A stretch of 64,000 nt of DNA, from IMG/VR virus record IMGVR_UViG_3300032318_000186, positions 660 through 64,659 of that record. The stretch is one strand, 5' to 3'. The stretch is from a virus (lineage: Duplodnaviria > Caudoviricetes). How positions within the stretch are numbered: position 1 is the stretch's first letter; every line of letters starts with the position of its first letter. The position numbers were made by a program, and so were the translations under genes. Below the pieces are notes generated by a model. It saw only the letters and a program-made list of their open reading frames with translations. It did no database searches and was not told the DNA's origin. Shown here in pieces: positions 4,941-61,221 of this stretch.

Positions 4941-5255
4941 ATGCCTTACACTAAAACACCTAGACCTTATGACCACGAATACGATATGGAAAAGAAGCGT
5001 GGAGAGCATCCCCGCCGTATGGAGCGTCAAAAAGCGAGGCGAGCTATGGACAAGACAGGAAAAGATGCCAACGGAAACGGTAAAGCAGACAAGCGAGAAG
5101 GCAAAGATGTAGCTCACAAAAAAGCTTTAGATAAAGGCGGTAGCAATAAAGATGGAGTAGTAATACAATCTGCGTCTAAGAATCGTAGTTTTAAAAGAGA
5201 TTCAAAAGGTAACTTAATCGGAGAAGTAAGTACCAAAGAACGTAAGAAAAAGTAA
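4941..5255 (+). CDS. HNH-like endonuclease
   Basis: DVAHKKALDKGGSN...KNRS; basic protein. Confidence 0.65.
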   Translation: MPYTKTPRPYDHEYDMEKKRGEHPRRMERQKARRAMDKTGKDANGNGKADKREGKDVAHKKALDKGGSNKDGVVIQSASKNRSFKRDSKGNLIGEVSTKERKKK

Positions 5256-11748: not shown

Positions 11749-14700
11749 AGTAGCCAGCCATCCGTCTTAATTGGTTTACATTGCCAAGCATTTTCTTTTC
11801 CATCTGACGGATACGCTCAATCTCTTGACCTTTTTTCTCAGCATCCATTCTAGACTCAGGTGCTTCAATAACATCTCTCTCATACGCACGTAGCTCAGAT
11901 AACTGCCTATTGATATTATTTACTTGATCTTTTACCTTAAGAAGGTCTACTCGTTTACCTTCAAATTCTCGGTATTCTTCTATTGTGCCGTGTTTCTCAA
12001 TATCGTTTAAAGTATTAACAGCTTTAGAAACTTCATCTCTAAGTTCATAATAATCATTCTTATCCGCATTGCCATACTCTCTAGCAACAAACGCACTTAA
12101 ACCAGGGGTAGTAGCAATTGCATCTTGCCAGCTCTTTTCAGGTCTAGGCTGGTCACTAACACCATTTACCAATCCGTTTGTAAACTGTAGAATTAAACCT
12201 CCAGTAGTACCTGTAACTCCTTTAATTATATGATCTACGTTTACTGGGGCAATCAACCCCGAACTACCAATAAATTTACCTAATTCGGAAGTGCTAGTTG
12301 TGTATTGTTTTTCAGTTTCTAAACCTGCTAAATGCTGACCAATAATAGACCGACCTGTGAAGAAGTTATAGTTTGTGCCTACCTCTAAGAAAGGTTTAAA
12401 TACTTGCGGTACAACAGTAGGGCTAAGTACTGCTTCGGCTAATGCACTACTCATAGCACGGCGAATCTTTTTACCGTCGGTAAATGCGTTATCAGTCATA
12501 CCCAAATAGGTATATTCAGCAATAAGTTTAGGCATTAAAGTTAAATCACTACGCAAAGGCAACATAAAAGCTGTACCTGGAATCAATAAGTGGCGGTCAC
12601 GAATGCTTGGATCCATCTTCTGATAGTCTTCATCATCCGCACTTAAAGCGGCATACATAAATGCCAAAGCACCAATCTTCAATGCGTTAGAAGCAAGAAT
12701 ACGGCGGGCTTCTTTTTTCTGTTGTGGCGCAATACCTTTACCTGATAGGGTCTTATATATTACGTTTTGAGCTTGTAAATACGCACCAAAAAACGGTATT
12801 ACCTGACGTAACATCTGAATATTGCCTGATGCCCCTGAACGCTTAAAGTTAATAATCTCAAACGCACGCTCAACTGCCAGTGCTTTATCGCCTGTTTCTT
12901 TCATGGTCATGTTGTAAACAGCCTGACGTACAGCGTTATCCGAAGCCATAGCAAAATTTTCAAGCGCCCGCATAAATGCACCTGACTTAGTATCTTTCTT
13001 TAAGCCAGCCATAATCTCAGCGTTTTCCCTAATAAACGTAGCCGAGTAATCACGCACCCCAACCGCACCATACTTAGTTAATTCAATAGCAGCCGCACTT
13101 CTACCTCGTAAGGTTTTAGTAAACTCTTTAGCTACTTCTAAAGGTAGCAACCAAGGATGCTTTAGTCCTGATGTAAGCATTGCACCAAATGAATCTTGGG
13201 AAAGCTGGCTAATAGAGAACAAAGGCATTAACACAATGTTCTTACGTAAAATATTTGCGGCAGCCGAACCAAAACCAAAATGAGGAATGGCGGCGGATTC
13301 TATACCTGTGAAGGCATAAACAAACAATGGGTCTTTAAACTCTACCTTTTGGCGTTGCCCATCTACCCATAAGTCAATAGTATTTTGCTCACGATGCACA
13401 GTCTCGTCTTGACGTAAATCTTTAACTTCGTCAGGGAATAACTTTTTAGCGGTATCGTATAGGTTTAATGCGCTACGGTTCTTCACGGCACGGGCTACGG
13501 TATAGCTAGTCCAACGTTCCATGTTATCAAAGATGTTGGCAACTTCTTGCTCGCTACCTTTAATTTTAAAACCTTTAGCAAAGTCAATCAAACCACGACC
13601 ATATTCTTTAGGGCCTGCTCTTTGTGCTAATTGTTCAACACGGTAGAACGGTACATAGTCCATGATATCTAACAACTCTTTTGCTTGGTCTTTGCTATAT
13701 AGTCCGCTTTGAACTGCTATGTCCATTGTGTTTTTACGAACGGCGTTCCAACTTTTTTGCACGTCACGTAATTCAGGGAGCATTTCAAAAAACTTAAGAC
13801 CAGCTTCAATTTGCTCGGGAGTCATGTGGCTATATATATCTTTGTCGGCTTTAGATAGTCCTTTTAAACGCTCTGCAACAAACGCTTGTTGTGCGTAGTT
13901 AGTAACTTTTTCTGTAGATAAACCGTTCTTTTTAGCAACATCTGCTAATTTACTAACAATACCTGACCAACTATCGTCGCCTTTTTCAGCTCTCCACTTA
14001 TAGGCTTTAGGGTCATACTTAAGAGAGCCATGCTGTAAGAACTGCATTGCAACTGCATCTGCGTGGGTAGCTTGAGACGTACTTACCTCAAACATCATCT
14101 GTTTAACAGTTTCCCAATCAGTTTTATTGCTTTCTAATTCTTTACGAATAGCATTATTCAACGCAGCATCTGCGGAAAATAGCATTGTTTCTGCGGTGTT
14201 TAAAAACTTATTAACTGCAGACTTAGCGGCTTGCGTACTCTTTGTAGAGTCTTTAATGGTTTGGAAAGCCCCTGTTTCTTCAGTAGGCTTAGCACGTCTA
14301 TTCGCTCCAGTAGTTTCGTAAAGTGCATCTAAGTCAGCTTCTCTAGCTACTTTTGCAATAGGCATTGTTTCTTTGCCTGTTACCGTATCTTCTTGAATCT
14401 TACGACCTGTTGCTAAAGACTGCTCAGCCGCCATCAAGCCGGATGCTAGAGCGCTAAGTTTTTGAGTAGGTGATAACCCTAATGCGTTTAATACTGCACG
14501 AATAAACGCAGTAAACAAGCTTTGGTTTTCTGCACGATAAGGAATGTTTTTAAGTTCTTCTTGGAACTCACGATTAGACATTAGCTCAGATGCAAACTCT
14601 GTAAGATTCTCCATACCATAACGACTAGAAAGTTCGGGGTGGTTTTCTTGTATAAAGTCATATAGGCGTTTTAAATCGGCAATACCTTTATTGCTTATAC

Positions 14701-50011: not shown

Positions 50012-50432
50012 CGTCTAACTTATAGGTTTTGATTGGTCCACTGCTATTTGCATCGACATTACAGGCCCACTCTACGCCCTCTTCGGCAGTAAGGCCCATC
50101 CGTAAACATACTTCGGCAGCCATGCTCCCAGAGCCAATAGCCATGAAGGTTCGAACCCTTTCCCACTCTAGGTCATCACCACAAGAAAAAAGCCCATCTT
50201 TAGTTAACTTTAAGAATGAGCTGTCAGATTTTAGCTTGGGTTTGGTTTTGTTTTTCTTACTTAGATAGTCTATGACCTTTTCGCAGTCGCTCCAATTTCC
50301 AGCAACACCTAACCAACCGCCATCTATGGGAACAATTTTATCTTCGAAGTATTTAATCCCAGTATCGGAATCAGTAAACTGGCTATCGGAAACCAAGATT
50401 TTTCTTCTCCAGTCGCCAATGATTGTAGTCAT
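50001..50432 (-). CDS. Ntn-hydrolase (HslV/proteasome beta-like) peptidase
   Basis: N-terminal MTTI, SDSQ, EDKI, GVAG, AIGSGS.AA, DANSSG. Confidence 0.75.
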   Translation of the reverse strand: MTTIIGDWRRKILVSDSQFTDSDTGIKYFEDKIVPIDGGWLGVAGNWSDCEKVIDYLSKKNKTKPKLKSDSSFLKLTKDGLFSCGDDLEWERVRTFMAIGSGSMAAEVCLRMGLTAEEGVEWACNVDANSSGPIKTYKLDDAI

Positions 50433-50575
50433 TTGGTAGCCATCATATACAGACCCACATTAGCGCCAGCATAGCAAGCGTAACAAATACACATAGGCAA
50501 GTTACCTTTGAATCCTTGTTCTGCTGCGATGTACGCATAAATTAACCCTGTAACAATAATAAGCCAAGAACTCAT
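50429..50575 (-). CDS. Small membrane protein (48 aa, MSSWLIIVTGLIYAYIA...)
   Basis: Read by hand. GGAGG RBS; ATGA overlap. Confidence 0.7.
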   Translation of the reverse strand: MSSWLIIVTGLIYAYIAAEQGFKGNLPMCICYACYAGANVGLYMMATK

Positions 50576-50678
50576 CACTCCTCCGTTTTACAGAGTTTAC
50601 TAGATGGTTTGGGCTTTGTCTAGTGCTTTATGAGCCGAGACGGGGTAAGCAGTTTCTACCTACCCCTAGGGTTTACCC

Positions 50679-50825
50679 TTATTTCTTCTTGTTAGCGCTG
50701 TACAAGTCTTTCCAAGTATCCATTACGCAGTTATACCAAAACTCATACGCTTGCTTAGTCTGGCTGGTGATAACTTCAAACTTCTCAATTGCTTCTTTGT
50801 ATTGCTTTTCAAAATCTGAATACAT
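50679..50825 (-). CDS. Small helical protein (48 aa), possibly phasin-like
   Basis: AAGGAG RBS and its own promoter. Confidence 0.6.
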   Translation of the reverse strand: MYSDFEKQYKEAIEKFEVITSQTKQAYEFWYNCVMDTWKDLYSANKKK

Positions 50826-50886
50826 ATAAAACTCCTTTTTCTTTACATTAATGTTTCCCAAACTTTACAATCTGGGGGTTTTGTGT

Positions 50887-50915
50887 AGTATACGATACAT
50901 TTTGTTGCGGTGCAA
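50887..50915 (-). promoter_or_regulatory. Promoter TTGCAC-17-TATACT overlapping a TGC-N3-GCA box
   Basis: Hexamers and spacer read from the sequence. Confidence 0.65.
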
Positions 50916-51402
50916 TATATGTTTAGATTTTGCAGTTTTTTATACATATGGGTATCAATATGTATACGCAATTAACACTTATAGGTATCAGTTTTATTAA
51001 AGTTTCATGCACTTACGTCACATGTTTGCACGAGTTTCTTTTTTAAAATCATAGGGTTATAGCGTTATTTTTTAGAGGCTGGTTTTGTGTTTCTAATTTA
51101 TAAAGATGTTGTAGGACACACTTAAGTCCAAAATTCTCTACAAAACAAAATCAAAAAATATATACCCCCCGGGGGTGTTTGCACGGAAACATAAGGGGGC
51201 CTAATCCTAGGAAAAACCCTAGTCCCAAGATGGGATAAAAAATATACCCCCCCCCTCTTAAAATTTTAAAAAATCATAATCGTTTGAGCACAATACAGCA
51301 CAAGGTGCGAGCGGGTCCCATCAGCGTCAAATGTGGTCATGGGGGGTCAAAGAATCGGCGGATATAAAAAAGCCATACTGTCAGACATTATTCAAATATC
51401 TA

Positions 51403-51431
51403 TTGACATAGCGCCATGTTAAGTTCATAAT
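51403..51431 (+). promoter_or_regulatory. Early promoter TTGACA-17-CATAAT
   Basis: Near-consensus; palindrome copy just upstream of the -35. Confidence 0.8.
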
Positions 51432-51489
51432 GGATTCATCAGTTCAGCAGGCGTTTGACTTGTTGCTGATTCCTACTAGGAGATTTAAA

Positions 51490-51972
51490 ATGACTTTAAA
51501 ATTATCTAATCAAGAGCAGTTGGCAGTTGAAGTTGCGAATGGTATCGTTGCAGTTGGTACGGCTCAGGCTAGTATTGACAAGGCTTGCCAAGCAATTAAA
51601 AAGGCTCGCAAGGGTAAGCCACTTGGTACAGTTGCAAAGGGTTGTGCAGTAATGATTCGCTTTACTGAAGTATTGTTGAAAGCTGGTAAATCGGAGCAGA
51701 CTGTTAAGAACTATGCGACAGCGTTCCGCAAAGCAGTAAATGATGGTGTTCCATTCAGCATGAATGCTTATCGTGCTAAGGCTTCTAAGGGTAGTCAAGC
51801 TGGCAAAACCAGCAACACTACTGGAGTGAAGTTCAAAGGTGATGCAAAGCTGGAAGATATCGTTAAGGGTTTGCGTACCATGTTTAACAAGTTCAAAGAA
51901 AACGATAAGACAGCGAGTTTAGCGTCTTACCTGATTGATGCGCTTGATGATTTCGAAGGCGATATCAAGTAA
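51490..51972 (+). CDS. First early gene, basic hypothetical protein
   Basis: AGGAG RBS; own promoter and terminator. Confidence 0.75.
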   Translation: MTLKLSNQEQLAVEVANGIVAVGTAQASIDKACQAIKKARKGKPLGTVAKGCAVMIRFTEVLLKAGKSEQTVKNYATAFRKAVNDGVPFSMNAYRAKASKGSQAGKTSNTTGVKFKGDAKLEDIVKGLRTMFNKFKENDKTASLASYLIDALDDFEGDIK

Positions 51973-51993
51973 TACCAGCATCACCAGCACAGA

Positions 51994-52021
51994 ACCCCAC
52001 TCAAAAGGTGGGGTTTTTTTT
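51994..52021 (+). terminator. Intrinsic terminator
   Basis: ACCCCAC-TCAAAAG-GTGGGGT followed by a T-run. Confidence 0.9.
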
Positions 52022-52189
52022 CGCCCATTTTTTGGGAACTGGTGTCATCTAGGTCGGCGAAGCCGACGGGTTTAAATTCTTTTTGCTCTTGCTTTTTCTG
52101 TCCGAAGGGCGTGATGAGTGGCGGTCAGCGAGGCACAAGATAGGTTGGCGAAGCCAATGAAATACTGTCAGACAGTACGAAACGAGCAA

Positions 52190-52615
52190 TGTTCACTCTG
52201 TTCACTCATGTTCACTCAGCAGTGAACAAACTTTTGTTGCGTTGCACACCTCGCAAACCCTTGTTTTGTATACCTTTTCTTTCTTTCTTTCTATAATAAT
52301 AATACTAATGTTCACTTGTTCACTCTATTTTAAAATGTATGTCGGGGTAAATTTTCCTAACTTGACAATGTAAAGTTTTAATACTGTCAGACAGTACGAG
52401 AAAGTTCTTTTTCTTAGGTGTCATACTTTTGGTTTTGAGTGAACATTCGGGCGCTAAATGCTGTAACCTATTGAACCAATTAGGAAATACCTTGTTCGTT
52501 GATGAGTGAACATTGCTGAACTTAGTGAACATTTGAGTGAACAAAGCCTACAAGACTTGACAGAGTAAAGGTAGATGGGAAATAGAAAAAGATGTTGTGA
52601 GAATGTGAGTGAACA
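52190..52615. repeat. Iteron-like (G)AGTGAACA array, 11 copies in two inverted arms; candidate replication origin
   Basis: Reverse copies at 52190, 52199, 52209, 52309, 52317; forward copies at 52221, 52437, 52504, 52524, 52535, 52607. Confidence 0.75.
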
Positions 52616-52693
52616 AACCCAATACTGTCAGACAGTATTCCACCCCGAAGTTGAAACCAGTTTTCTGAAGAACCCCAAGCGAGGTCTAGCCTA

Positions 52694-52722
52694 TTGACAC
52701 AGGGTTATAATAGTGTTATAAT
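52694..52722 (+). promoter_or_regulatory. Perfect sigma70 promoter TTGACA-17-TATAAT with extended TG
   Basis: Exact consensus. Confidence 0.9.
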
Positions 52723-52728
52723 AGAGAG

Positions 52729-53290
52729 GTAGAGTCGAGGAATGGTCGTGTTCGAACCAAACCGAAACCAAATACTGTCAGACAGTACCGATAGTATCGT
52801 TCTTTAAAAACTTGTTAAATGCCACGCACAAGCGTGGTGCAGAGTAGGCGTAGGGTGCAGTTATTTCCAAGCTAAGGTTGTGGGAATACAAACCACTATA
52901 AGTAAAAAGCACAGCGTAATGGTTGAAGGGCTAGATACTTAGCCCGAGGTAATCGAGTAGTGTGAAGTGATTGATAGCGCAAGGCGAAGTGCCGACTAAT
53001 CATGATGAACCATAAAAAGAGCAAGCGTGTTAGAACCAACAAACTAAAATAGCGAATCCCGAGCAGTACCTCTGTGGTAGTAGATTGATGTGGAATAGGT
53101 TAGGGTTTATTAACTTAACTGGGCGAAATACTGTCAGACAGTATCAGAGCCTTCAAAACCCCAAGCCGTTCGACCACACGCATCAATACCTACCCATGCC
53201 CGAACCCCCCACAGGAACTGCGACAAACTAGCAGAGGGCAAACAAACAAATAGAAGATTCATAGGTCAGGTTGATCTCGGTCAGCCTGCC
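52729..53290 (+). ncRNA. Candidate large structured non-coding RNA
   Basis: No credible ORF; many nested helices; closing hairpin at 53267-53288. Confidence 0.55.
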
Positions 53291-53323
53291 CGCTTGAGTT
53301 TTTTAACCACGAAAGGAGAAGTT

Positions 53324-53500
53324 GTGAATGTAATTAAACTGTATCGAAACCCTAATAAGCCCGAGTTCATGGCTTTGATTTGTCAGGTTGGTGACGAAAT
53401 ATTGGTCAATTACCCGATAGATATTAGGTATGGTAAACGCACCGCAAGGTGGTTCAATGTCAACGAAGTTTATATAGATTGGATAAGGGAGTTTAAATGA
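53324..53500 (+). CDS. Small hypothetical protein
   Basis: GTG start after AAGGAG. Confidence 0.65.
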   Translation: MNVIKLYRNPNKPEFMALICQVGDEILVNYPIDIRYGKRTARWFNVNEVYIDWIREFK

Positions 53501-53598
53501 AAGAGTTAATGGAAATAGTAGTTTGGTCGGTCATAGGTGTTTTCACCTATGTATTTATTATTGCGTTAAATCATACTATTTGGGAGGTATTGAAATGA
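53497..53598 (+). CDS. 33-aa single-TM peptide
   Basis: Read by hand; ATGA overlaps at both ends. Confidence 0.55.
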   Translation: MKELMEIVVWSVIGVFTYVFIIALNHTIWEVLK

Positions 53599-53801
53599 GA
53601 AAAGGAAACAGTAACAAGGCACTATTTAAAAAGATGTTGGGGGATTCAATAGACCAAGCGTTTGTGATTAGTGCTATCGAGTCATACTGTCAGACAGTAT
53701 TGGAAGACGATACTGATTGGGGAAAAACCCTAATAAACAAGGAGTTATGGCAAGTGATTGCTACACGAAACCTAAAAACCATAGAGGAGCATTACAAATG
53801 A
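53595..53801 (+). CDS. Small hypothetical protein
   Basis: GGAGG RBS. Confidence 0.7.
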   Translation: MRKGNSNKALFKKMLGDSIDQAFVISAIESYCQTVLEDDTDWGKTLINKELWQVIATRNLKTIEEHYK

Positions 53802-54004
53802 AGAATATATGTAGATGTTGCGGAGACGAGTACCCCGAGGGGAGGTGGAAGCTAGGCTATAAGTTTTGCCTAGATTGTGGGGTAGACATAGCCGAGGCAG
53901 TAACCAAGGGCTTTACAGTAGCCATACCATTCAACAAGGGTGCGTATCAGTATATCCATAACCCAAAAGAGTTAGCGACAACCAACCCCAAGAGGACAAC
54001 ATGA
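53798..54004 (+). CDS. DksA/TraR-like C4 zinc-finger protein
   Basis: CRCCGDEYPEGRWKLGYKFCLDC. Confidence 0.6.
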   Translation: MKNICRCCGDEYPEGRWKLGYKFCLDCGVDIAEAVTKGFTVAIPFNKGAYQYIHNPKELATTNPKRTT

Positions 54005-54279
54005 GAAATCCATACCAACATAGGGCTGAGATTAAAGACCCTTACATGACCTTGCAGGAAATTGCCGACATGATGGGCATGAGTCGGGAGAGGGTCAGAC
54101 AGATTGAGGTACGGGCGCTGGGTAAGGTTAAGCAAGAACTATTTAAGCGAGGGATAACGGCTGAGGATTTTTTCTCTACCCTTAAATACATGAAGCCGAT
54201 TAAGCGTAACCCTAACGAAATACTGTCAGACAGTACGGACTACGAACTAATTGAACCTGAAAGGAATGAAGATGAATGA
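54001..54279 (+). CDS. Sigma70 region-4-like HTH protein
   Basis: MTLQEIADMMGMSRERVRQIEVRALGKVK. Confidence 0.85.
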   Translation: MRNPYQHRAEIKDPYMTLQEIADMMGMSRERVRQIEVRALGKVKQELFKRGITAEDFFSTLKYMKPIKRNPNEILSDSTDYELIEPERNEDE

Positions 54280-54451
54280 GTGCTATGTTTTTGTTTTGTG
54301 CGATACCTTTACAGGTATGGAGTTTATGAGGACAGAAGTAGACGAGCCTAAACCTCAAATAGACGCTGAGTTTTGGGATAGGTTTATGCAAGGTGATTGC
54401 CTGATGGAATATAGGGGCAAGGTATATGACGAGGAGGAAGAAAATGATTAA
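54272..54451 (+). CDS. Small acidic protein
   Basis: Coupled ORF. Confidence 0.6.
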   Translation: MNECYVFVLCDTFTGMEFMRTEVDEPKPQIDAEFWDRFMQGDCLMEYRGKVYDEEEEND

Positions 54452-54698
54452 GTGTACCGAGTATCGCATGGGTAAACCCCGAACAATGAGGGACAAACCT
54501 CTCAAAATGCCACGAGCCAATGACCCAGTATATCTAGGAGCTAAGCTAATAAAGGCTAACTCTACGCAGGAAAGACGGCAACTGGTCTCAATCGCAATGG
54601 GCGACATTTTTTATGCGTTTGGGGTAGTCAGGAAGCCTTGGAAAGATTGGCTAACCTATGAAGAAAACATGAACGAACCAAATGGAGAAAGAGCATGA
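54444..54698 (+). CDS. Small hypothetical protein
   Basis: GGAGG RBS. Confidence 0.65.
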   Translation: MIKCTEYRMGKPRTMRDKPLKMPRANDPVYLGAKLIKANSTQERRQLVSIAMGDIFYAFGVVRKPWKDWLTYEENMNEPNGERA

Positions 54699-54904
54699 GA
54701 ACACCAATGGAGAAAAACTTACAACCAATCCCTAGAACCTTATCAGAGGCGAACCGAGATGCAAAGTACGCTTGTGCTATTCAGACTTTTAGAAGTGATG
54801 TAAAGCTGACATGGGATTTTTTATGTAATGCCTTTTTAGGTGCGTTATGGGTAACAGTAGCAATAGGTGGTATAGCAGGTGTAGTTTATATGTTTTTTAA
54901 ATAA
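54695..54904 (+). CDS. Small protein with C-terminal TM helix
   Basis: ATGA overlap; hydrophobic tail. Confidence 0.65.
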   Translation: MRTPMEKNLQPIPRTLSEANRDAKYACAIQTFRSDVKLTWDFLCNAFLGALWVTVAIGGIAGVVYMFFK

Positions 54905-54947
54905 CCAATACTGTCAGACAGTATTACAACATCTTTAGGAGAATCAA

Positions 54948-55901
54948 ATGAGTTTAGAAAAGTTCGAGCATTTCAAGCAACGCTTTATCAACACCGCACC
55001 CATCCGTGGTCGGGCAGTAGAGTGCAGACCAATCGGGCAAAGGCGCAGAGATTGGGAACAGATAGTCAAGCGTTACATTGTGGAAGAGGGCGCACTAGAT
55101 GTGGAGGGTGGAGAGGCATACGGCGCACACTTGTACCAAACTGACTGCGTTATGTATCTATCTGATGGGGCTATCCATGTAGCGACTGATGGGTATGAAA
55201 CACCAACAACGGCTGAGTTTATCGGGAGATACTTACCTCGGACAATGCGTTGTTATAAGAAATACAACAAGATATGGGTCGAATACAAAGGTCAGTCGTA
55301 TGTATTGGACAACAAGAAACCAACAGTATTTCGCTATGTCAAATCAGACGATGCCTACTATATTGAGAACCCGATCAAGTTAGAGCAAAAGGTAATCGAC
55401 AGAACCAAGATGAAAACGGCTAGGGAAAAGCTAACACCATTCCGTAACTATGCCAAGATCATGCTCAAACTATCTGATGGGTGGCTGAGTAATGAGTTAG
55501 TAGACCAACACGCAACAGGCGAGGCTGATTACTATGGTCGCAAGTCTTATGAGTTTGATGGTACGACATATGACAGATGGGCGCTTACAGGTTCGGTTAG
55601 TGCAAAGATTGCAGGCGAGTTGTACGAGGCTATGTGTAACGCAACGGAAGAACAATTCCCAAAACTTCTTTGCATAATCTGTGCGAGTAGTAGCTATAAA
55701 GAGAGTCGCATCTGTAAAACGGAACAGGTAGAACGCACCGACTATCAAGGCAACAAACATATGGAACAAGTAAACATTCGTGAGCATCAGTATGACTACA
55801 AGAGTGTGGACAATCGCATTAACTATTTCATTAAGCAAGTAGCTGATGTGCATACAACAAGAGAAGTAGCGTTAGGTGTAGTTGCTACGAATTGCTTGTA
55901 A
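54948..55901 (+). CDS. Hypothetical early protein (317 aa)
   Basis: AGGAG RBS; long ORF. Confidence 0.8.
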   Translation: MSLEKFEHFKQRFINTAPIRGRAVECRPIGQRRRDWEQIVKRYIVEEGALDVEGGEAYGAHLYQTDCVMYLSDGAIHVATDGYETPTTAEFIGRYLPRTMRCYKKYNKIWVEYKGQSYVLDNKKPTVFRYVKSDDAYYIENPIKLEQKVIDRTKMKTAREKLTPFRNYAKIMLKLSDGWLSNELVDQHATGEADYYGRKSYEFDGTTYDRWALTGSVSAKIAGELYEAMCNATEEQFPKLLCIICASSSYKESRICKTEQVERTDYQGNKHMEQVNIREHQYDYKSVDNRINYFIKQVADVHTTREVALGVVATNCL

Positions 55902-55912
55902 GTGTTGGGGTA

Positions 55913-55941
55913 TTGACACAGAGGTAGTATAGCGGTATAAT
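55913..55941 (+). promoter_or_regulatory. Perfect sigma70 promoter TTGACA-17-TATAAT
   Basis: Exact consensus; palindrome at 55980 in the leader. Confidence 0.9.
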
Positions 55942-56029
55942 AGAGGTATAAGTAGTAGAAGTATGTAGTCGTAGCCTAATACTGTCAGACAGTATTGGGT
56001 TTTTTTAATTTTAAATCAAGGAGAAGTAT

Positions 56030-57148
56030 ATGAGTATCAAGTTCGGTAGTTCTTTAACTCTCAACGAGTTTGCAAATGCAATATCAGTAGTGGGTTCAGA
56101 TGTAACCATCATTGGTCAGGGTGAGCCAGGAATTGGCAAGAGTTCTATGCTCAAGGCAGTAGCCAAGCGTTACCCCGACTATGAGGTAGCCTACATTGAT
56201 TGCACCCTGTTAGACCTAGGTGACTTTGCGCTTCCGTATACGGAGGAGGTGGTTCTTGAGAAACTGGCATCAACTCTCAAAGTAACTAAGTTCGCACCAA
56301 ACGCAAGGTTTAAATTCCAATCGGGTAAGCCTGTAATCGTTATGCTTGACGAGATAGGCAAGGCAATGAAAGCGGTTAAGAATGTGTTGCTCACGCTGAT
56401 GTTAGAAAAGCGTATCGGTGATATGTCTTTGCCCGAGGGTTCGATTGTGTTCGGTACAACTAACCTTGCTACTGATGGGGTTGGTGATTCACTCGAGGCT
56501 CATGCTCGTAATCGTGTTTGCTTTGTGACTGTGCGTAAACCACACGCAGGCTTCCAAGCTGACGGCTCTATTGACTCTGACTCTTGGGGTGCGTGGGCTG
56601 TGGAGAATGATATTGCTCCCGAGGTATTGGCATGGGTTAAGCAATTTCCTCATGCTTTGGAGTCTTATACCGACCCTGCTCAAAAAGATAATCTATACAT
56701 CTTTAACCCAACTCGGGCAGGACAGTCAGCGTTCGTTACCCCTCGTTCACTCGAGAAGGCTAGTCATATTGCTAGAAAGCGTGCAGACTTAGGCGATGGT
56801 GTAACTATCTCGGCATTGGCAGGCACAATCGGTGAGAGTGCGGCTCGTGATATGCAAGCGTTCTTTACTGTGGTGGACAAGCTACCTACATGGGAGGCTA
56901 TATGTAATTCACCTAGTACGGCTAAAGTACCTGATGATGCGGTAGCTAAATGTATCTTGACTTTCTCAGCTATTACTCGGGTTGACAAGGACACGCTACC
57001 TAAGTGGCTCAAGTACGCAGACCGATTGGATAAAGAATTACAAGCGTTGTTTGCCCGTTCAATCGTGAAGTCTAGTACCAAGCAAGCTATGGCGGTATCT
57101 AACAAGGAGTTTGTCAAATGGGCGACAGACAATCAGTGGTTGTTTTAA
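56030..57148 (+). CDS. MoxR-like AAA+ ATPase
   Basis: GEPGIGKS, MLDEIGKA, GTTN, ARNR, TPRS. Confidence 0.85.
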   Translation: MSIKFGSSLTLNEFANAISVVGSDVTIIGQGEPGIGKSSMLKAVAKRYPDYEVAYIDCTLLDLGDFALPYTEEVVLEKLASTLKVTKFAPNARFKFQSGKPVIVMLDEIGKAMKAVKNVLLTLMLEKRIGDMSLPEGSIVFGTTNLATDGVGDSLEAHARNRVCFVTVRKPHAGFQADGSIDSDSWGAWAVENDIAPEVLAWVKQFPHALESYTDPAQKDNLYIFNPTRAGQSAFVTPRSLEKASHIARKRADLGDGVTISALAGTIGESAARDMQAFFTVVDKLPTWEAICNSPSTAKVPDDAVAKCILTFSAITRVDKDTLPKWLKYADRLDKELQALFARSIVKSSTKQAMAVSNKEFVKWATDNQWLF

Positions 57149-57175
57149 ATACTGTCAGACAGTATTGGGGGATAT

Positions 57176-57376
57176 ATGAAACTTAAATGGGTAGAACTAC
57201 ATGGAATGAAATATGTAGAGGACTATGAAGATGACTATACCCATTGTGCTAGGTGTGCATTTTATGACGATGAGTTTAATTCGTATTGCAAACAAGTCTC
57301 ATGTGCAAATCATGTTTATGTCCCCCTCGAACCACAACATATACCAAACTTAAGAAAGGTAGGTAGAAAATTATGA
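57176..57376 (+). CDS. Small Cys-containing protein
   Basis: HCARCAFY...YCKQVSC. Confidence 0.65.
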   Translation: MKLKWVELHGMKYVEDYEDDYTHCARCAFYDDEFNSYCKQVSCANHVYVPLEPQHIPNLRKVGRKL

Positions 57377-58554
57377 CTAGATTAACAGCAGAACAACGAG
57401 TGCAGAAGTCTCATGTGGCATTGATGAATGACCCTAAATACTGCCTTTACTCGGGTATCTTCATGCTAGGTAAGACCGAGGTGAGTGATGAGATTCCTAC
57501 TGCCTGTACCGATGGGCGTAACACTTACTATGGTCGTAAGTTTGTAGACAAGCTAAAAGATTCTGATTTGAAGGGCTTGATACTTCATGAGAATCTACAC
57601 AAGGCTTTCCGTCATACAACTGTATGGAAACATCTTTACAAACAGAACCCACAACTAGCGAACATGGCTTGTGACTTTGTTATTAACTTAATGATTCACG
57701 ACTCAGACCCACAAGGCGCAATGGTATCTCTACCTGAAGGTGGTTGCTTAGATGAGAAGTATCGTGGCATGGATGCAGGCGAGGTATTTCGTTTACTTAA
57801 ACAAGAGGGGGGTAAAGGTGGAAAAGGCAATGGTAGTGGCGAGGATGAACAAGAGGGTGGGCAGGGCTTTGACGAGCATGATTGGGAAAGTGCCGATGCC
57901 TTGTCAGAAGATGAGAAACAAGCATTGGCTCGTGAAGTCGATCAAGCCTTAAGACAGGGCGCACTACTGGCAGGCAAACTCAACGGCAATGTCCCTCGTG
58001 AGATTACTGAGGCTATGGAAGCTAAGGTTAATTGGAAAGAAGTATTGAGAGACTTTGTAAACGCTATCTGCAATGACAAGGACAACTCTACATGGCGCAG
58101 ACCAAATCGTAGGTGGGTAGATCAGAATGTCTATATGCCTAGCGCAATCGGTGAGGCAGTAGGTCGTATTGTGGTGGCTATTGATACATCAGGCTCTATT
58201 GGTGATGAGCAGATCGGGCAGTTCTTAGGCGAGTTAGTGTCTATCTGTAATCATGTTCAGCCCGAGGGTATTGACTTGATGTATTGGGATACCGAGATAT
58301 GCGCTCATGAGAAGTATGACCGAGGAGACTATGAGGCTATCTTGTCATCTACTAAACCTGCGGGGGGTGGTGGTACGAGTGCCGAATGTATTCCTATATA
58401 CATTGCAGAACACAAGCTAAACCCTGAGTGTGTGATTGTTCTAACTGACGGCTACATTGGCGGTTGGGGCGATTGGAAGCACCCAGTATTTTGGGGTATT
58501 ACAACTAACCAAGTCGCACCATGTGGTGTGTCTGTAAAAATTGAGGAGAATTAA
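57373..58554 (+). CDS. HExxH metallopeptidase-like plus VWA domain protein (DUF2201-like)
   Basis: TACTDG, LHENLH; MIDAS IDTSGS, GGGT, LTDG. Confidence 0.85.
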   Translation: MTRLTAEQRVQKSHVALMNDPKYCLYSGIFMLGKTEVSDEIPTACTDGRNTYYGRKFVDKLKDSDLKGLILHENLHKAFRHTTVWKHLYKQNPQLANMACDFVINLMIHDSDPQGAMVSLPEGGCLDEKYRGMDAGEVFRLLKQEGGKGGKGNGSGEDEQEGGQGFDEHDWESADALSEDEKQALAREVDQALRQGALLAGKLNGNVPREITEAMEAKVNWKEVLRDFVNAICNDKDNSTWRRPNRRWVDQNVYMPSAIGEAVGRIVVAIDTSGSIGDEQIGQFLGELVSICNHVQPEGIDLMYWDTEICAHEKYDRGDYEAILSSTKPAGGGGTSAECIPIYIAEHKLNPECVIVLTDGYIGGWGDWKHPVFWGITTNQVAPCGVSVKIEEN

Positions 58555-58555
58555 G

Positions 58556-58762
58556 ATGGCGATAGCTAGAGGATTTGAAACGCTGATGTTAAAGACAGAA
58601 GCAAAAAAGAAGTTTTTAGATGCAAAGAAGAAGATGGAATCGCAGTTAGGTGTAACTCTTACGCACTCAAATGCTATGGAGGTGATGGCTGACCAAATAC
58701 TGTCAGACAGTACGAAGTTACGATTAAGGATTGTCCCACTAACACAAGGAGAAGAATCATGA
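58556..58762 (+). CDS. Small putative DNA-binding protein
   Basis: Coupled ORF; RHH-like helical pattern. Confidence 0.6.
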   Translation: MAIARGFETLMLKTEAKKKFLDAKKKMESQLGVTLTHSNAMEVMADQILSDSTKLRLRIVPLTQGEES

Positions 58763-59598
58763 TTGGAAGCAACGCTATGCTAGTAGACCTAAACATTTCT
58801 ATGTGGACAGGTCGTAAGATGGATAAAAAAGTATCCGAGGAGATTGATGTAAGCAAGAGCACCAAGGCTCGGGCAGGCAACTACCACAAGAAGTTATTGG
58901 CAGGCTCGGACAAGCTAGAGAAGGTGCAGAAGATTGCTACTGCGGTGCGTGCATGGAACTATCAACATACCTTACCTTGGTCTGATGGTGGCTCACGCTT
59001 ACTACCTATGAAGTCTTTCTTTGATTACAAGGCTACGCTAGGCAACTACGAGGCGCAATACACGCAGGCGGTGGATGACTTTCTTGTAGAGTATCCGCAA
59101 CTGGTTTCAGGTTCTGCGTTTACGCTTGGTGCTTTGTTTGACCGAGGAGAGTATCCCGATGTTGAGGAATTGCGCAACAAGTTTCGTTTTAAATATGTGT
59201 TCTGTCCTGTGCCCGATGCAGGGGATTTCAGAATAGATGTTGAGGAACAGGCTAAGAACGAACTACAACAGCAATACAAAGAGTATTACGACGGCAAGTT
59301 AGCTGATGCTATGAAAGACGCATGGGATAGGTTGCATGAAACCCTTACTCATTTGAGTGATCGTATGGACTACACAGACGAGAATAAAAAGAAGTTTTGG
59401 GATTCTACTATCACCAATGCCTCTGACCTGTGTGGGTTGCTGACAAGCCTTAATATAACTAACGACCCTAAGCTAGAGACTATGCGCCAGCAACTTGAGA
59501 AAGCGTTGAATGGTGTGGATGCCTCAGACATTCGTGAAAGCGAAGCAATCCGTAGTTCGGTGAAGTCTAAGGTAGATCAAATTCTAAACATGTTTTAA
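58759..59598 (+). CDS. DUF3150-like helical protein
   Basis: LVDLNISMWTGRK.D, TLPWSDGG.RLLP, PVPDAGDFR. Confidence 0.65.
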   Translation: MIGSNAMLVDLNISMWTGRKMDKKVSEEIDVSKSTKARAGNYHKKLLAGSDKLEKVQKIATAVRAWNYQHTLPWSDGGSRLLPMKSFFDYKATLGNYEAQYTQAVDDFLVEYPQLVSGSAFTLGALFDRGEYPDVEELRNKFRFKYVFCPVPDAGDFRIDVEEQAKNELQQQYKEYYDGKLADAMKDAWDRLHETLTHLSDRMDYTDENKKKFWDSTITNASDLCGLLTSLNITNDPKLETMRQQLEKALNGVDASDIRESEAIRSSVKSKVDQILNMF

Positions 59599-59607
59599 GG
59601 AGGGTGT

Positions 59608-60024
59608 ATGGGATATCGAAGCGAGGTAGGGTTTTTTATTGAGTTTACAAAAGACCCCGAGGAGTTTATTGCCCTGATGAAAGTAGATGGGCGAGATATA
59701 TTTAAAGACTTCTTGCGGTTTATGTATGTAGAGAATTACCCCGAACCGATACTAGAAGAAGATGCGCCTGTTGGTGGGGTTCACTTTTTCCATAACCATT
59801 GGAAGTGGTACGAGGATTCTAAAAACGGCTTTATGGATTTGCTTAACATGGCTGAAAACTATGATGAGAACTTCAAAGCTAAGTTTGTTAGGACAGGGGA
59901 AGAGTCTGATGACAATGAAGAAGAGTGGTTTAACGACGACGACTATGCCTTAGAGTACCCCTATATGGTACGCAGGGTAGATACAGGAATGGACTTAAGT
60001 AAACTAAAGAAAGTGGAGGAGTAA
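59608..60024 (+). CDS. Acidic hypothetical protein
   Basis: MGYRSEV, W.KWYE, FVRTGEE.DD. Confidence 0.75.
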   Translation: MGYRSEVGFFIEFTKDPEEFIALMKVDGRDIFKDFLRFMYVENYPEPILEEDAPVGGVHFFHNHWKWYEDSKNGFMDLLNMAENYDENFKAKFVRTGEESDDNEEEWFNDDDYALEYPYMVRRVDTGMDLSKLKKVEE

Positions 60025-60025
60025 A

Positions 60026-60829
60026 ATGCTACAACTTAAAGATATAGATAAGACACAGTTAAGCGAGCCTGTGGTTGCGTTCTTAGATGCAATGGAACTT
60101 AAGCACGCTAAGAATCCGTACTGTCTGACAGTATCGGCGCATCAAAGCCAATACAAACCTGAGTTTTGGCAACTGCGCTTTCACGACGCTAGGTTCGAGG
60201 AAAACGAAGTAGAACTTGCAGGGGTGGTGGAGTGGGTCTACGGTAGCCGTAATGACAAGGAATACAAGATTACCTCACGCAAGATTCAGAACGATAGGTT
60301 CGGTCATTGGGGTAACGAGCACTCGTCTCGCAGAACTAAGGACATGAAGAAAGCCTTGAAGATTGCTATGGATACTATTGACCCCTTCCAATGGCATGAG
60401 ATATCTAATAAGGGTAGACGTAAGGCAGAGCAAGCGCATGAACAATGGAGTAATCAAGACAACAAGTTTGTATTCCCATTTAGAATCAGCCACGAGGATA
60501 TATACGAAGAAGTAAAGCATCTTGTGGAAATGGGTGTTCAGTTCAAGACCGAAGCTTTTAAAAAGTCAGCAGCAGGAATTCCAAACTACGAAGAAATGAT
60601 ACGCAAGGCGAGCATTAAACCTAAGTTCGATACTGTTATTGTGCGCCCTGACAAAACTATCTTTATCCCCGATGGTCGTGCATTAAACCCACAAGAATTT
60701 AACGACGCAGACTTACTACCTGAACAAGCCAGAAACGGTATCGCTCTTTTAAAACTTGTTGAGAAAGACACGCTACTGCCCGAGGTAGGCTATCGTGGTG
60801 GGGAAAACACCTACTTTATTTTAGTGTGA
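60026..60829 (+). CDS. Hypothetical protein
   Basis: GGAG RBS; long ORF. Confidence 0.75.
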   Translation: MLQLKDIDKTQLSEPVVAFLDAMELKHAKNPYCLTVSAHQSQYKPEFWQLRFHDARFEENEVELAGVVEWVYGSRNDKEYKITSRKIQNDRFGHWGNEHSSRRTKDMKKALKIAMDTIDPFQWHEISNKGRRKAEQAHEQWSNQDNKFVFPFRISHEDIYEEVKHLVEMGVQFKTEAFKKSAAGIPNYEEMIRKASIKPKFDTVIVRPDKTIFIPDGRALNPQEFNDADLLPEQARNGIALLKLVEKDTLLPEVGYRGGENTYFILV

Positions 60830-60834
60830 TGCTA

Positions 60835-60863
60835 TTGACTAGTAAGTGAGCAGTCTTTACAAT
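60835..60863 (+). promoter_or_regulatory. Promoter TTGACT-17-TACAAT
   Basis: Near-consensus. Confidence 0.75.
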
Positions 60864-60891
60864 GTATAGATAAACCCTAATAAGGAAGAGT

Positions 60892-61221
60892 ATGAAAGAT
60901 GAAGATGGCTTTATAAAAGCTATGGATGACCTGTTCGATAAGTTTAGAGAAAGGTTAGCCCCTGTGCGTGTTGAGTTTATGGATGGAAGGATTGTTATGT
61001 CTACCCAAATAGAAATACGAGCAGGCAAACTATTTGAACCGAAGTATCACCAATGCGATTATGGAGAGCTACCTAGCTTTATTGCTGACAAGATAGCCCT
61101 ACTACGAACGGCAGGTAAAGGTATAGAGGTAGATGGCATGGGCAAGTGGCGAGGCGACAAACTCTACTATGTGCAAGTATCCCCTAAGCAATGGAATCAG
61201 TACCATGAGGCAAGAGTATGA
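60892..61221 (+). CDS. Hypothetical protein
   Basis: ORF downstream of the promoter. Confidence 0.7.
   Translation: MKDEDGFIKAMDDLFDKFRERLAPVRVEFMDGRIVMSTQIEIRAGKLFEPKYHQCDYGELPSFIADKIALLRTAGKGIEVDGMGKWRGDKLYYVQVSPKQWNQYHEARV

Follow-up and report, generated by a model that had tools for sequence, protein, structure and literature searches.

A lineage-specific palindrome at promoters and gene starts across the early region of an uncultured phage

In phage lambda, Cro, the first product of the early rightward operon, turns early transcription down; the Streptomyces phage phiC31 carries 17-bp repressor sites, the CIRs, that recur between its early genes; and in the KorB/KorA system of IncP plasmids, the 13-bp OB palindrome is present in 12 copies, lying beside promoters, tens to hundreds of bp away from them, or within genes. 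In the Cluster A mycobacteriophages, including L5 and Bxb1, stoperators are numerous repressor sites, distributed genome-wide, that stop elongation, and their motifs co-evolve with the repressor (PMC9283540, PMC6550527). Here, a 15-bp palindrome, TACTGTC-N-GACAGTA (TACTGTCWGACAGTA), is described from the early region of a phage (Duplodnaviria; Caudoviricetes) represented by IMG/VR virus record IMGVR_UViG_3300032318_000186. The window analyzed comprises 64,000 nucleotides, bases 660-64659 of this 64,659-bp record, and the whole record was scanned for the palindrome.

Sequence comparison points to these palindromes, at a probability of about one-half, as double-stranded DNA operators (~17 bp, two 7-bp half-sites, free centre) of a symmetric, phage-encoded protein that would co-evolve rapidly with its sites. 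The comparison shows strong purifying selection on the arms and the positions of the sites, no constraint on the centre base, concerted evolution of all copies from lineage to lineage, and a link of the sites to promoters and gene starts.

Number, conservation and concerted evolution of the palindrome

An exact and mismatch scan returned 12 exact copies and one copy with a single mismatch, all within 51376-60133; in dinucleotide-preserving shuffles, the expectation was 0.00 for exact copies and 0.13 when as many as two mismatches were allowed. No further copy was found outside these limits in the full record; the remaining 55 kb is empty, and all copies fall within one 8.8-kb domain of the 64.7-kb genome. 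The scan thus upheld the count of 13 copies confined to 51.4-60.1 kb that had been given in a first-pass annotation of the sequence, as well as the gap sizes between copies. The density gradient reported there is real and recurs in relatives, but it splits into two components: a dense cluster of five copies in a 1.3-kb, iteron-bearing stretch free of open reading frames (ORFs), and a sparse part with about one copy per gene boundary, in which the genes lengthen along the early region. The site is a perfect 7-1-7 palindrome, with the centre base as its sole asymmetric position. Nine of the 13 copies are outside coding sequences (CDSs), and all 13 are near gene boundaries; the four intragenic copies use two frames, as had been noted, and encode YCQTV (53685), ILSDS (54221 and 58698) and YCLTV (60119). 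Consensus sigma-70 promoters at 51403, 52694 and 55913 were likewise borne out.

The exact 15-mer is present in many other IMG/VR contigs, and several of these, from phages of 63-65 kb, contain 7-14 copies (labels beginning with G and L denote relative genomes and loci, all from IMG/VR). In G002, the arms of eleven orthologous copies are identical to those of the window at 153 of 154 positions, compared to 70% identity in the 60-nt flanks, and in a one-mismatch scan of five genomes all variants differ at the centre alone. Among relatives sharing the TACTGTC arm (type 1), ~190 distinct perfect copies stand against 10 imperfect ones; all 10 sit upstream of the -35 element of the promoter of the first early gene, gp51490, with mismatches at varied positions, and one of them would retain a G-U pair. 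The immediate flanks are symmetric, being A-rich on the left and T-rich on the right, and no signal was detected farther out in the flanks of 169 aligned copies.

The centre base varies freely. It agrees between the window and G002 at 7 of 11 orthologous sites (the G002 sense-strand centres read, in order, T T T G A A A A A A T), and 163 distinct type-1 copies have a sense-strand centre of A in 101 cases, T in 44, and G and C in 9 each; a sister lineage has T in 15, A in 2, C in 2 and G in 1. In other motif types, the centre is mostly T (type 2) or C or G (type 6), or else three central bases vary (type 3). The central A previously taken as a strand asymmetry is present in 12 of the 13 window copies on the + strand, but orthologous copies in relatives carry T, G or C, and the bias of the window is therefore not a conserved feature.

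Loci were anchored on the DUF3150 protein and the first early protein; the gene order is the same among them, and a different perfect palindrome stands at the corresponding boundaries between genes. Eight motif types were distinguished by their arms: TACTGTC (type 1; window, G001-G004, L200, L207), TAATGTC (type 2; L165, L166 and others), TACTAC-N3-GTAGTA (type 3; L173, L176, L204), TACTGRC (type 4; L197, L198), TAACGTC (type 5; L199), TTCTAAC (type 6; L201, with seven copies), TTCACAC (type 7; L206) and TACCGTC (type 8; L159). Dyad symmetry is maintained across all eight. The MoxR protein of L201 is 86% identical to that of the window, yet each palindrome is different. All copies of one genome change together, including those internal to CDSs. 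For instance, the same codons of gene 58556-58762 encode ILSDS, IMSDI, IPSDG or LLPSS, depending on the palindrome of the lineage; the 3′ end of this gene, which encodes a 68-aa protein, always bears the lineage's palindrome. Since the peptide changes along with the palindrome, selection acts on the nucleic acid and not on the protein, in agreement with the earlier proposal, and the ILSDS and YCQTV peptides in the four genes should be annotated with caution, since it is the DNA site that dictates them and not the role of the protein. Concerted switching of all copies requires a co-evolving recognition partner acting in trans.

Promoters, gene starts and the genomic setting

The sites are nearer to start codons than expected by chance (P ~0.001-0.002), and their layout is conserved across types 1, 2 and 6. 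It starts with one copy 9-19 nt upstream of the -35 element (TTGACA; G001-G003, L201) of the first early promoter, followed by the first gene and a terminator-like hairpin; two or three copies then bracket and bisect an ORF-free iteron array, a perfect promoter follows with a copy at ~+51, and about one copy lies shortly ahead of each conserved gene (zinc-ribbon, 54948, MoxR, VWA, DUF3150 and 60026). Coordinates of the window features are given in Table 1.

Table 1. Palindrome copies, promoters and associated elements of the early region (window coordinates)
Feature	Position	Strand	Context
Copy 1, imperfect (TACTGTCAGACATTA, GACATTA arm)	51376-51390		12 nt upstream of the -35 element of the first early promoter
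Sigma-70 promoter driving gp51490, TTGACA-17-CATAAT	51403-51431	+	
gp51490, first early gene; 160 aa, pI 9.7, basic N-domain, acidic tail	51490-51972	+	
Terminator-like hairpin and T-run	52007-52025	+	closes the gp51490 transcription unit
Copy 2	52163-52177		left edge of iteron array
Iterons: TGTTCACTC x5, then opposite-orientation GAGTGAACA-type copies	52190-52620		ORF-free, origin-like
Copy 3	52382-52396		centre of iteron array
Copy 4	52623-52637		right edge of iteron array
Perfect sigma-70 promoter, 12/12 positions, with TG	52694-52722	+	
Copy 5	52773-52787		~+51 from transcript start of the 52694 promoter
Copy 6	53129-53143		within ORF-free leader
Copy 7	53685-53699		in small CDS 53595-53801 (YCQTV); 113 nt before the TraR-like zinc-ribbon gene
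Copy 8	54221-54235		3′ end of sigma-70-region-4-only gene 54001-54279 (ILSDS)
Copy 9	54909-54923		intergenic, 25 nt ahead of the 54948 gene start
Perfect sigma-70 promoter	55913-55941	+	before the MoxR, VWA and DUF3150 genes
Copy 10 (55980-55994), tip of a 13-bp hairpin, then T-run	55973-56010	+	terminator/attenuator, MoxR leader, ~+39
Copy 11	57150-57164		2 nt past the MoxR stop codon, directly before the next ribosome-binding site
Copy 12	58698-58712		in small gene 58556-58762 (ILSDS); 61 nt before the DUF3150 gene
Copy 13, centre T	60119-60133		93 nt into gene 60026-60829 (YCLTV); last of the domain
Promoter-like site TTGACT-17-TACAAT (weaker)	60835-60863	+	opens the next transcription unit, ends the palindrome domain

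Individual sites differ in how widely they are shared. The position of copy 8 has no palindrome in G002, and the T centre of copy 13 is retained in many type-1 relatives (e.g., G002/L149, L144-L148 and L154-L156); at the position corresponding to copy 13, L173 carries its own lineage-specific palindrome. Consensus promoters occupy the place matching 60835 in both G001 and G002. The 65,090-bp genome of G001 has two extra type-1 copies beyond the early block, at 12424 and 8297, located after an Hjc-like gene and before an SNF2 helicase gene; the regulon can thus reach into replication genes.

The iteron array at 52190-52620 is likely a replication origin. Iterons of the GTTCAC type are located between palindromes in L201 and L196, in the same place as the window array, indicating that the iteron is more conserved than the palindrome. 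The iteron octamer presumably resembles the TGTTCACC iterons to which the alpha primase-helicase of satellite phage P4 binds. In the window, the perfect promoter beyond the array is followed by a 500-nt ORF-free leader (52790-53290). A helix-turn-helix (HTH)-like protein of 144-168 aa (TLREWCQ..NYLTVRMRY) replaces this leader in the type-2 and type-6 lineages (L196, 4035-4469; L201, 2350-2856), and no trace of its gene was found in type-1 genomes.

Genes of the rightward block run from 51.4 kb across the record end to 11.5 kb, and the leftward structural genes from 50.5 to 11.7 kb (terminase, portal, capsid, SU10-type adaptor, tail fibre and a 1913-aa LPD38 protein). The rightward block starts with small genes with no assigned function; later genes encode a MoxR-type AAA ATPase, a DUF2201 VWA/metallopeptidase protein and a DUF3150 protein, and the block also encodes an Hjc-like resolvase, a family A DNA polymerase, a PD-(D/E)XK nuclease, an SNF2 helicase and a DUF927 primase-helicase. 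The terminal repeat of the record falls within the DNA polymerase gene. Pfam and PHROG scans of 54 distinct predicted proteins, which did not take in all small ORFs, detected no integrase or repressor family and no ParB/Srx family, and neither the early genes nor the large virion proteins gave a match to an RNA polymerase family. From its gene content, the phage looks lytic and reliant on host RNA polymerase. Cultured phages gave no nucleotide match, and no close cultured relative was found.

Upstream of the first early promoter are two further conserved non-coding elements, a G/C palindrome at 51162-51177 (TATACCCCCCGGGGGT) and a block of ~33 nt at ~51292-51323 (AATACAGCACAAGGTGCGAGCGGGTCCCATCA), which between them recur in relatives of several motif types (G001, G002, L189, L199 and L201). 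Located where the early and late blocks diverge, they may serve in packaging, mark a terminus or control late promoters. Elsewhere in the window, 4941-5255 encodes a 104-aa, extremely basic protein, rich in K, R, G and D and probably disordered, which has 61-88% identity among relatives and is unusually conserved for such a sequence.

Recognition of the sites and the candidate binder

Free spacers are typical of sites for dimeric proteins, and the loops of protein-bound RNA hairpins are usually not free. The combination of invariant arms, a free centre and almost no wobble-compatible variants favours a double-stranded DNA site for a symmetric protein. The confinement of all 10 imperfect copies to one position, with only one of them wobble-compatible, suits operator tuning and not an RNA stem; judged by these variants, the imperfect copy 1 looks like affinity tuning of a single operator rather than the drift of an RNA stem.

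The sites could instead act as hairpins in a polycistronic early mRNA, either read by a phage RNA-binding protein or endoribonuclease or serving as pause, termination or stability elements, with the effect that individual cistrons are processed, stabilised or translationally tuned; the closest parallel is provided by the RNase III sites between the early genes of T7. Such punctuation would suit the placement of sites just upstream of ribosome-binding sites and start codons, the location of all window sites inside the rightward-transcribed early block, the dyad symmetry of all eight motif types and the T-runs that often follow type-2 copies. It would also suit copy 10, at the tip of a conserved hairpin (-15.5 kcal/mol, z -6.3) that, with its T-run, starts ~25 nt after the perfect 55913 promoter, and whose lower stem varies in type-1 relatives yet stays paired (CCTAA/TTGGG, CCAAA/TTTGG). 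The 55913-56010 segment would either free an abundant leader RNA of ~55 nt or attenuate the MoxR/VWA/DUF3150 operon. Of the 13 copies, copy 10 alone has the features of an intrinsic terminator, a stem with a T-run, the other 12 having no T-run or no stable stem. However, most of the palindrome hairpins are weak as RNA (-4 to -6.6 kcal/mol). Copy 1 precedes its own promoter, copies 2-4 lie behind a terminator-like hairpin in the ORF-free iteron stretch, and cleavage of the intragenic copies would destroy their messages. Invariant stems with a free loop centre are the reverse of how hairpins are usually read by proteins, and there is no compensatory variation within a genome. At flank pairs 2-7, no pairing covariation was detected beyond that predicted from base composition, so a longer stem is not selected in general, and no Rfam match was found in 50400-61000 at E values up to 1. 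Punctuation of the early mRNA is, on this evidence, unlikely. The same features speak against the boxB-like RNA hairpin put forward in the first-pass annotation, in which the loop centre would be the only free position and the imperfect copies would break the pairing.

A role in replication is improbable. The copies could form single-stranded DNA hairpins that act as priming or helicase-loading signals for the DUF927 primase-helicase, as the ssi signals of RSF1010 do, or they could organise the origin as duplex elements. Three copies bracket or bisect the iterons, those of relatives also lie between palindromes, and a palindrome yields an identical hairpin on both strands; the spacings of 0.15-1.5 kb match the size range of Okazaki fragments, and the centre base, which would form the hairpin loop, varies freely. 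Nevertheless, the sites span only 9 kb on one side of the origin, with none in the remaining 55 kb, and their placement tracks gene boundaries and promoters. The identity of the primase-helicase does not track the motif (64% for type 2 and 71% for type 3, compared to 55-82% within type 1), and the weak copy at the first promoter is left without explanation.

Host proteins, which the first-pass annotation had listed among candidate binders, are very improbable partners, as is the possibility that the sites are recombination linkers that shuffle early-gene modules, in the manner of the promoter/stem-loop cassettes of T4-type phages. Gene content between palindromes does differ, e.g., by the 144-168-aa HTH-like gene of the type-2 and type-6 lineages, and identical short repeats lie at gene boundaries. 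On the other hand, the 19-mer that extends the palindrome gave five single hits in 596 Gb of sequence from 185,579 bacterial and archaeal species genomes, which is chance level and gives no support to a host regulon or to prophage copies. Phages with 85-86% identical MoxR proteins differ in motif, and their hosts would need very different regulator specificities; both results make a host protein partner unlikely. Dyad symmetry, conserved position and the weakened copy 1 would be needless for recombination.

There is little chance that protein-free RNA-RNA pairing explains the sites, by which the abundant ~55-nt leader RNA from 55913 would pair with other copies and trigger cleavage or silencing: such a scheme would allow concerted evolution without a protein, through the mutual complementarity of the copies, and would accord with the failure to identify a protein partner, with the conserved arrangement of a perfect promoter and, ~25 nt on, a palindrome-containing hairpin with a T-run, and with the ORF-free RNA bearing two copies that the perfect 52694 promoter also drives, but intermolecular pairing would face strong competition from the hairpin within each RNA, RNase III would have a short substrate in a duplex of 15-17 bp, A opposite A mismatches at the centre, copy 1 and copies 2-4 (probably untranscribed DNA) are unexplained, and we know of no precedent for protein-free pairing of this kind.

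Several narrower candidates were rejected. For a promoter element, no conserved -10 or fixed-distance signal was found in the 169 aligned copies, no phage RNA polymerase was found, and one site is followed by a start codon only 11 nt away; an N4-type hairpin promoter is opposed by the lack of any RNA polymerase family among the large virion proteins and early genes, by the symmetry of the flanks and by the missing downstream signal. The nick sites of Pseudomonas phages are TACT/RTGMC; the palindrome has a different sequence and, being symmetric, would be nicked on each strand.

For the preferred reading, operators of a phage-encoded protein, the binder was sought among the early genes. Among the early genes, only gp51490 combines presence in all palindrome-bearing genomes tested with a palindrome invariably alongside. 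This linkage extends over seven lineage types and reaches homologues with as little as 25-35% identity, on short metagenomic contigs, with a palindrome ~100-120 nt before the start codon and often another directly after the gene. The family, a new one, comprises 66 clusters at 50% identity. Its members have a basic N-terminal helical domain (+8 to +11), a Lys-rich linker and a conserved acidic tail, and the N-terminal half diverges fastest (e.g., 39% identity in L166, compared to 85% for MoxR). No Pfam family matched, a profile search against solved structures returned nothing, no similarity to Cro or any HTH fold was found, and 50,697 phage records contained no homologue; look-alikes in a structure atlas were limited to unnamed viral clusters and a weak DUF3102 lead. 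The gene at 51490, already named as a candidate binder, thus gains from its universal linkage to the palindrome, but residue covariation gives no support and its fold is uninformative. From these sequence features, gp51490 is a possible, though doubtful, palindrome binder, and this assignment is the most speculative part of the explanation.

Other proteins were set aside on presence and absence or on covariation. For each of the HTH candidates of the first-pass annotation (1172, 8352, 54001 and 62915), tblastn failed to detect the protein in one or more relatives that carry palindromes, although this search has little power with such short proteins. Two of them, 54001-54279 (92 aa) and 1172-1366 (64 aa), consist of little beyond a sigma-70 region 4 HTH (Pfam E values of 3.5e-12 and 1.3e-8) and are found in only some relatives. 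The 144-168-aa HTH-like protein of the type-2 and type-6 lineages was rejected as the binder because it is absent from type-1 genomes. The 58556-58762 protein was rejected because its N-terminal strand is identical in types 1 and 3; by eye, it is ribbon-helix-helix-like (short strand, helix, G-x-T-x-T-H-S turn, helix), a reading for which no Pfam support was obtained. The 68-aa zinc-ribbon protein encoded at 53798-54004 has a conserved NPKRTT tail and a Cys pattern that reads as TraR/DksA-like, with a Pfam zf-dskA_traR match at E 0.28 only; it is present in all lineages with the early region recovered except G004, where tblastn did not detect it. If TraR/DksA-like, it may bind RNA polymerase rather than DNA.

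It is an inference that the palindromes are read by a protein and that this protein works on DNA, as a repressor. As operators, they would form one regulon spanning the early region transcribed by host RNA polymerase, with a weak site just upstream of the first early promoter, three sites that bracket and bisect the origin-like iteron region, one site 40-50 nt downstream of each strong internal promoter, and about one just upstream of each conserved early gene. As the early-made protein accumulates, it would become a roadblock or insulator against transcription through the early units, and the outcome would be a Cro-like or stoperator-like early shut-off; the same protein may keep read-through transcription out of the origin. 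Because the phage would use host RNA polymerase throughout, it could not shut off its early genes by inhibiting that enzyme, and a site-specific protein could do so.

Several observations weigh against the operator reading or against gp51490 as its protein. One promoter has its site at approximately -55 to -62 and the others have theirs at +39 to +51, none overlapping a -35 or -10 element, whereas classic operators are placed differently. Ribosome-binding sites directly adjoin many of the palindromes, which a role at the level of mRNA could explain equally, and, judged by the paired changes in the stem of copy 10, transcript structure is under selection at the MoxR leader. Fold searches with the whole gp51490 protein and its N-domain found no known DNA-binding fold (best Z 6.3), no alignment column in the family is type-1-specific, and type 1 occurs in three divergent gp51490 clades whose sister proteins bear different motifs. 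No palindrome was found in L203, which has the most distant gp51490 homologue checked. To our knowledge, no stoperator-type system has been described in lytic phages, and this phage appears lytic.

Early shut-off in lytic phages that lack their own RNA polymerase is known for only a few model phages. This uncultured group shows a clean, conserved layout and a key gene without a cultured relative, and it offers a directly testable regulon, in which seven or more orthogonal versions of the site could help to identify the binder and decipher how it recognises DNA. It is conceivable, although the odds are against it, that gp51490 founds a new DNA-binding early family that silences the whole early region of lytic podophages reliant on host RNA polymerase, via palindromic roadblocks ahead of all early genes and about the origin, possibly with a new DNA-binding fold. 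If so, closely related phages would have changed the specificity of gp51490 on at least seven occasions, giving an immunity-like specificity system in non-lysogenising phages that could possibly exclude related superinfecting phages.

Comparison with known multi-site systems

A literature search with the motif returned unrelated primer matches only, and no paper was found on perfect palindromes in phage early regions. Among systems in which palindromes organise DNA, the parS/matS-like loading system raised in the first-pass annotation shares one trait with this locus, a cluster of identical palindromes that defines a domain, here of 8.8 kb. No cognate was found: ParB/Srx families are missing from the scanned proteins, and the 19-mer is at chance level in the 185,579 species genomes. 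Lambda N/boxB and the hairpins of the N4 virion polymerase are polar, have conserved loop bases, number two or three per genome and need N or a virion RNA polymerase. They resemble the palindromes in having a short stem and a small loop and in lying in early leaders; in contrast, the palindromes have a free loop centre and symmetric flanks, and neither an N protein nor a virion RNA polymerase was found.

Systems of repeated operators are closer. As in the KorB regulon, one perfect palindrome occurs at promoter-proximal, distal and intragenic positions of one replicon, beside replication functions. KorB, however, is a ParB-family protein, and no ParB or KorA family match was found above threshold in the scanned proteins; weak KorA matches (E 0.001-0.008) fall on two small sigma-region-4-like proteins that are not universal. 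The phiC31 CIRs are likewise highly conserved palindromic sites between early genes, some of them near promoters, but phiC31 is temperate and its binder is a known repressor, and neither applies here. As in the Cro system, a small early protein would act on free-centre palindromes to lower early transcription by host polymerase in lytic growth; Cro has six operators overlapping two promoters, whereas the 13 sites here are mostly inside transcription units.

With stoperators, the palindromes share an abundance of near-identical short sites, mostly in short intergenic gaps, both near and away from promoters, and a lineage-specific motif whose copies all change together. Stoperators are 13-bp asymmetric sites, oriented with transcription and spread over the whole genome, for a monomeric immunity repressor of temperate phages; the sites here are perfect palindromes with a free centre, confined to the early region of an apparently lytic phage in which no repressor or integrase homologue was found. 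The earlier statement that the sites do not fit a repressor operator set was thus too strong, as multi-site operator regulons such as stoperators do fit. Being non-polar, confined to the early region and without a related protein found, the palindrome system belongs neither to the stoperators nor to lambda Cro; it fits best as a further form of multi-operator regulon, from a group of uncultured lytic phages and with a binder that is possibly novel.

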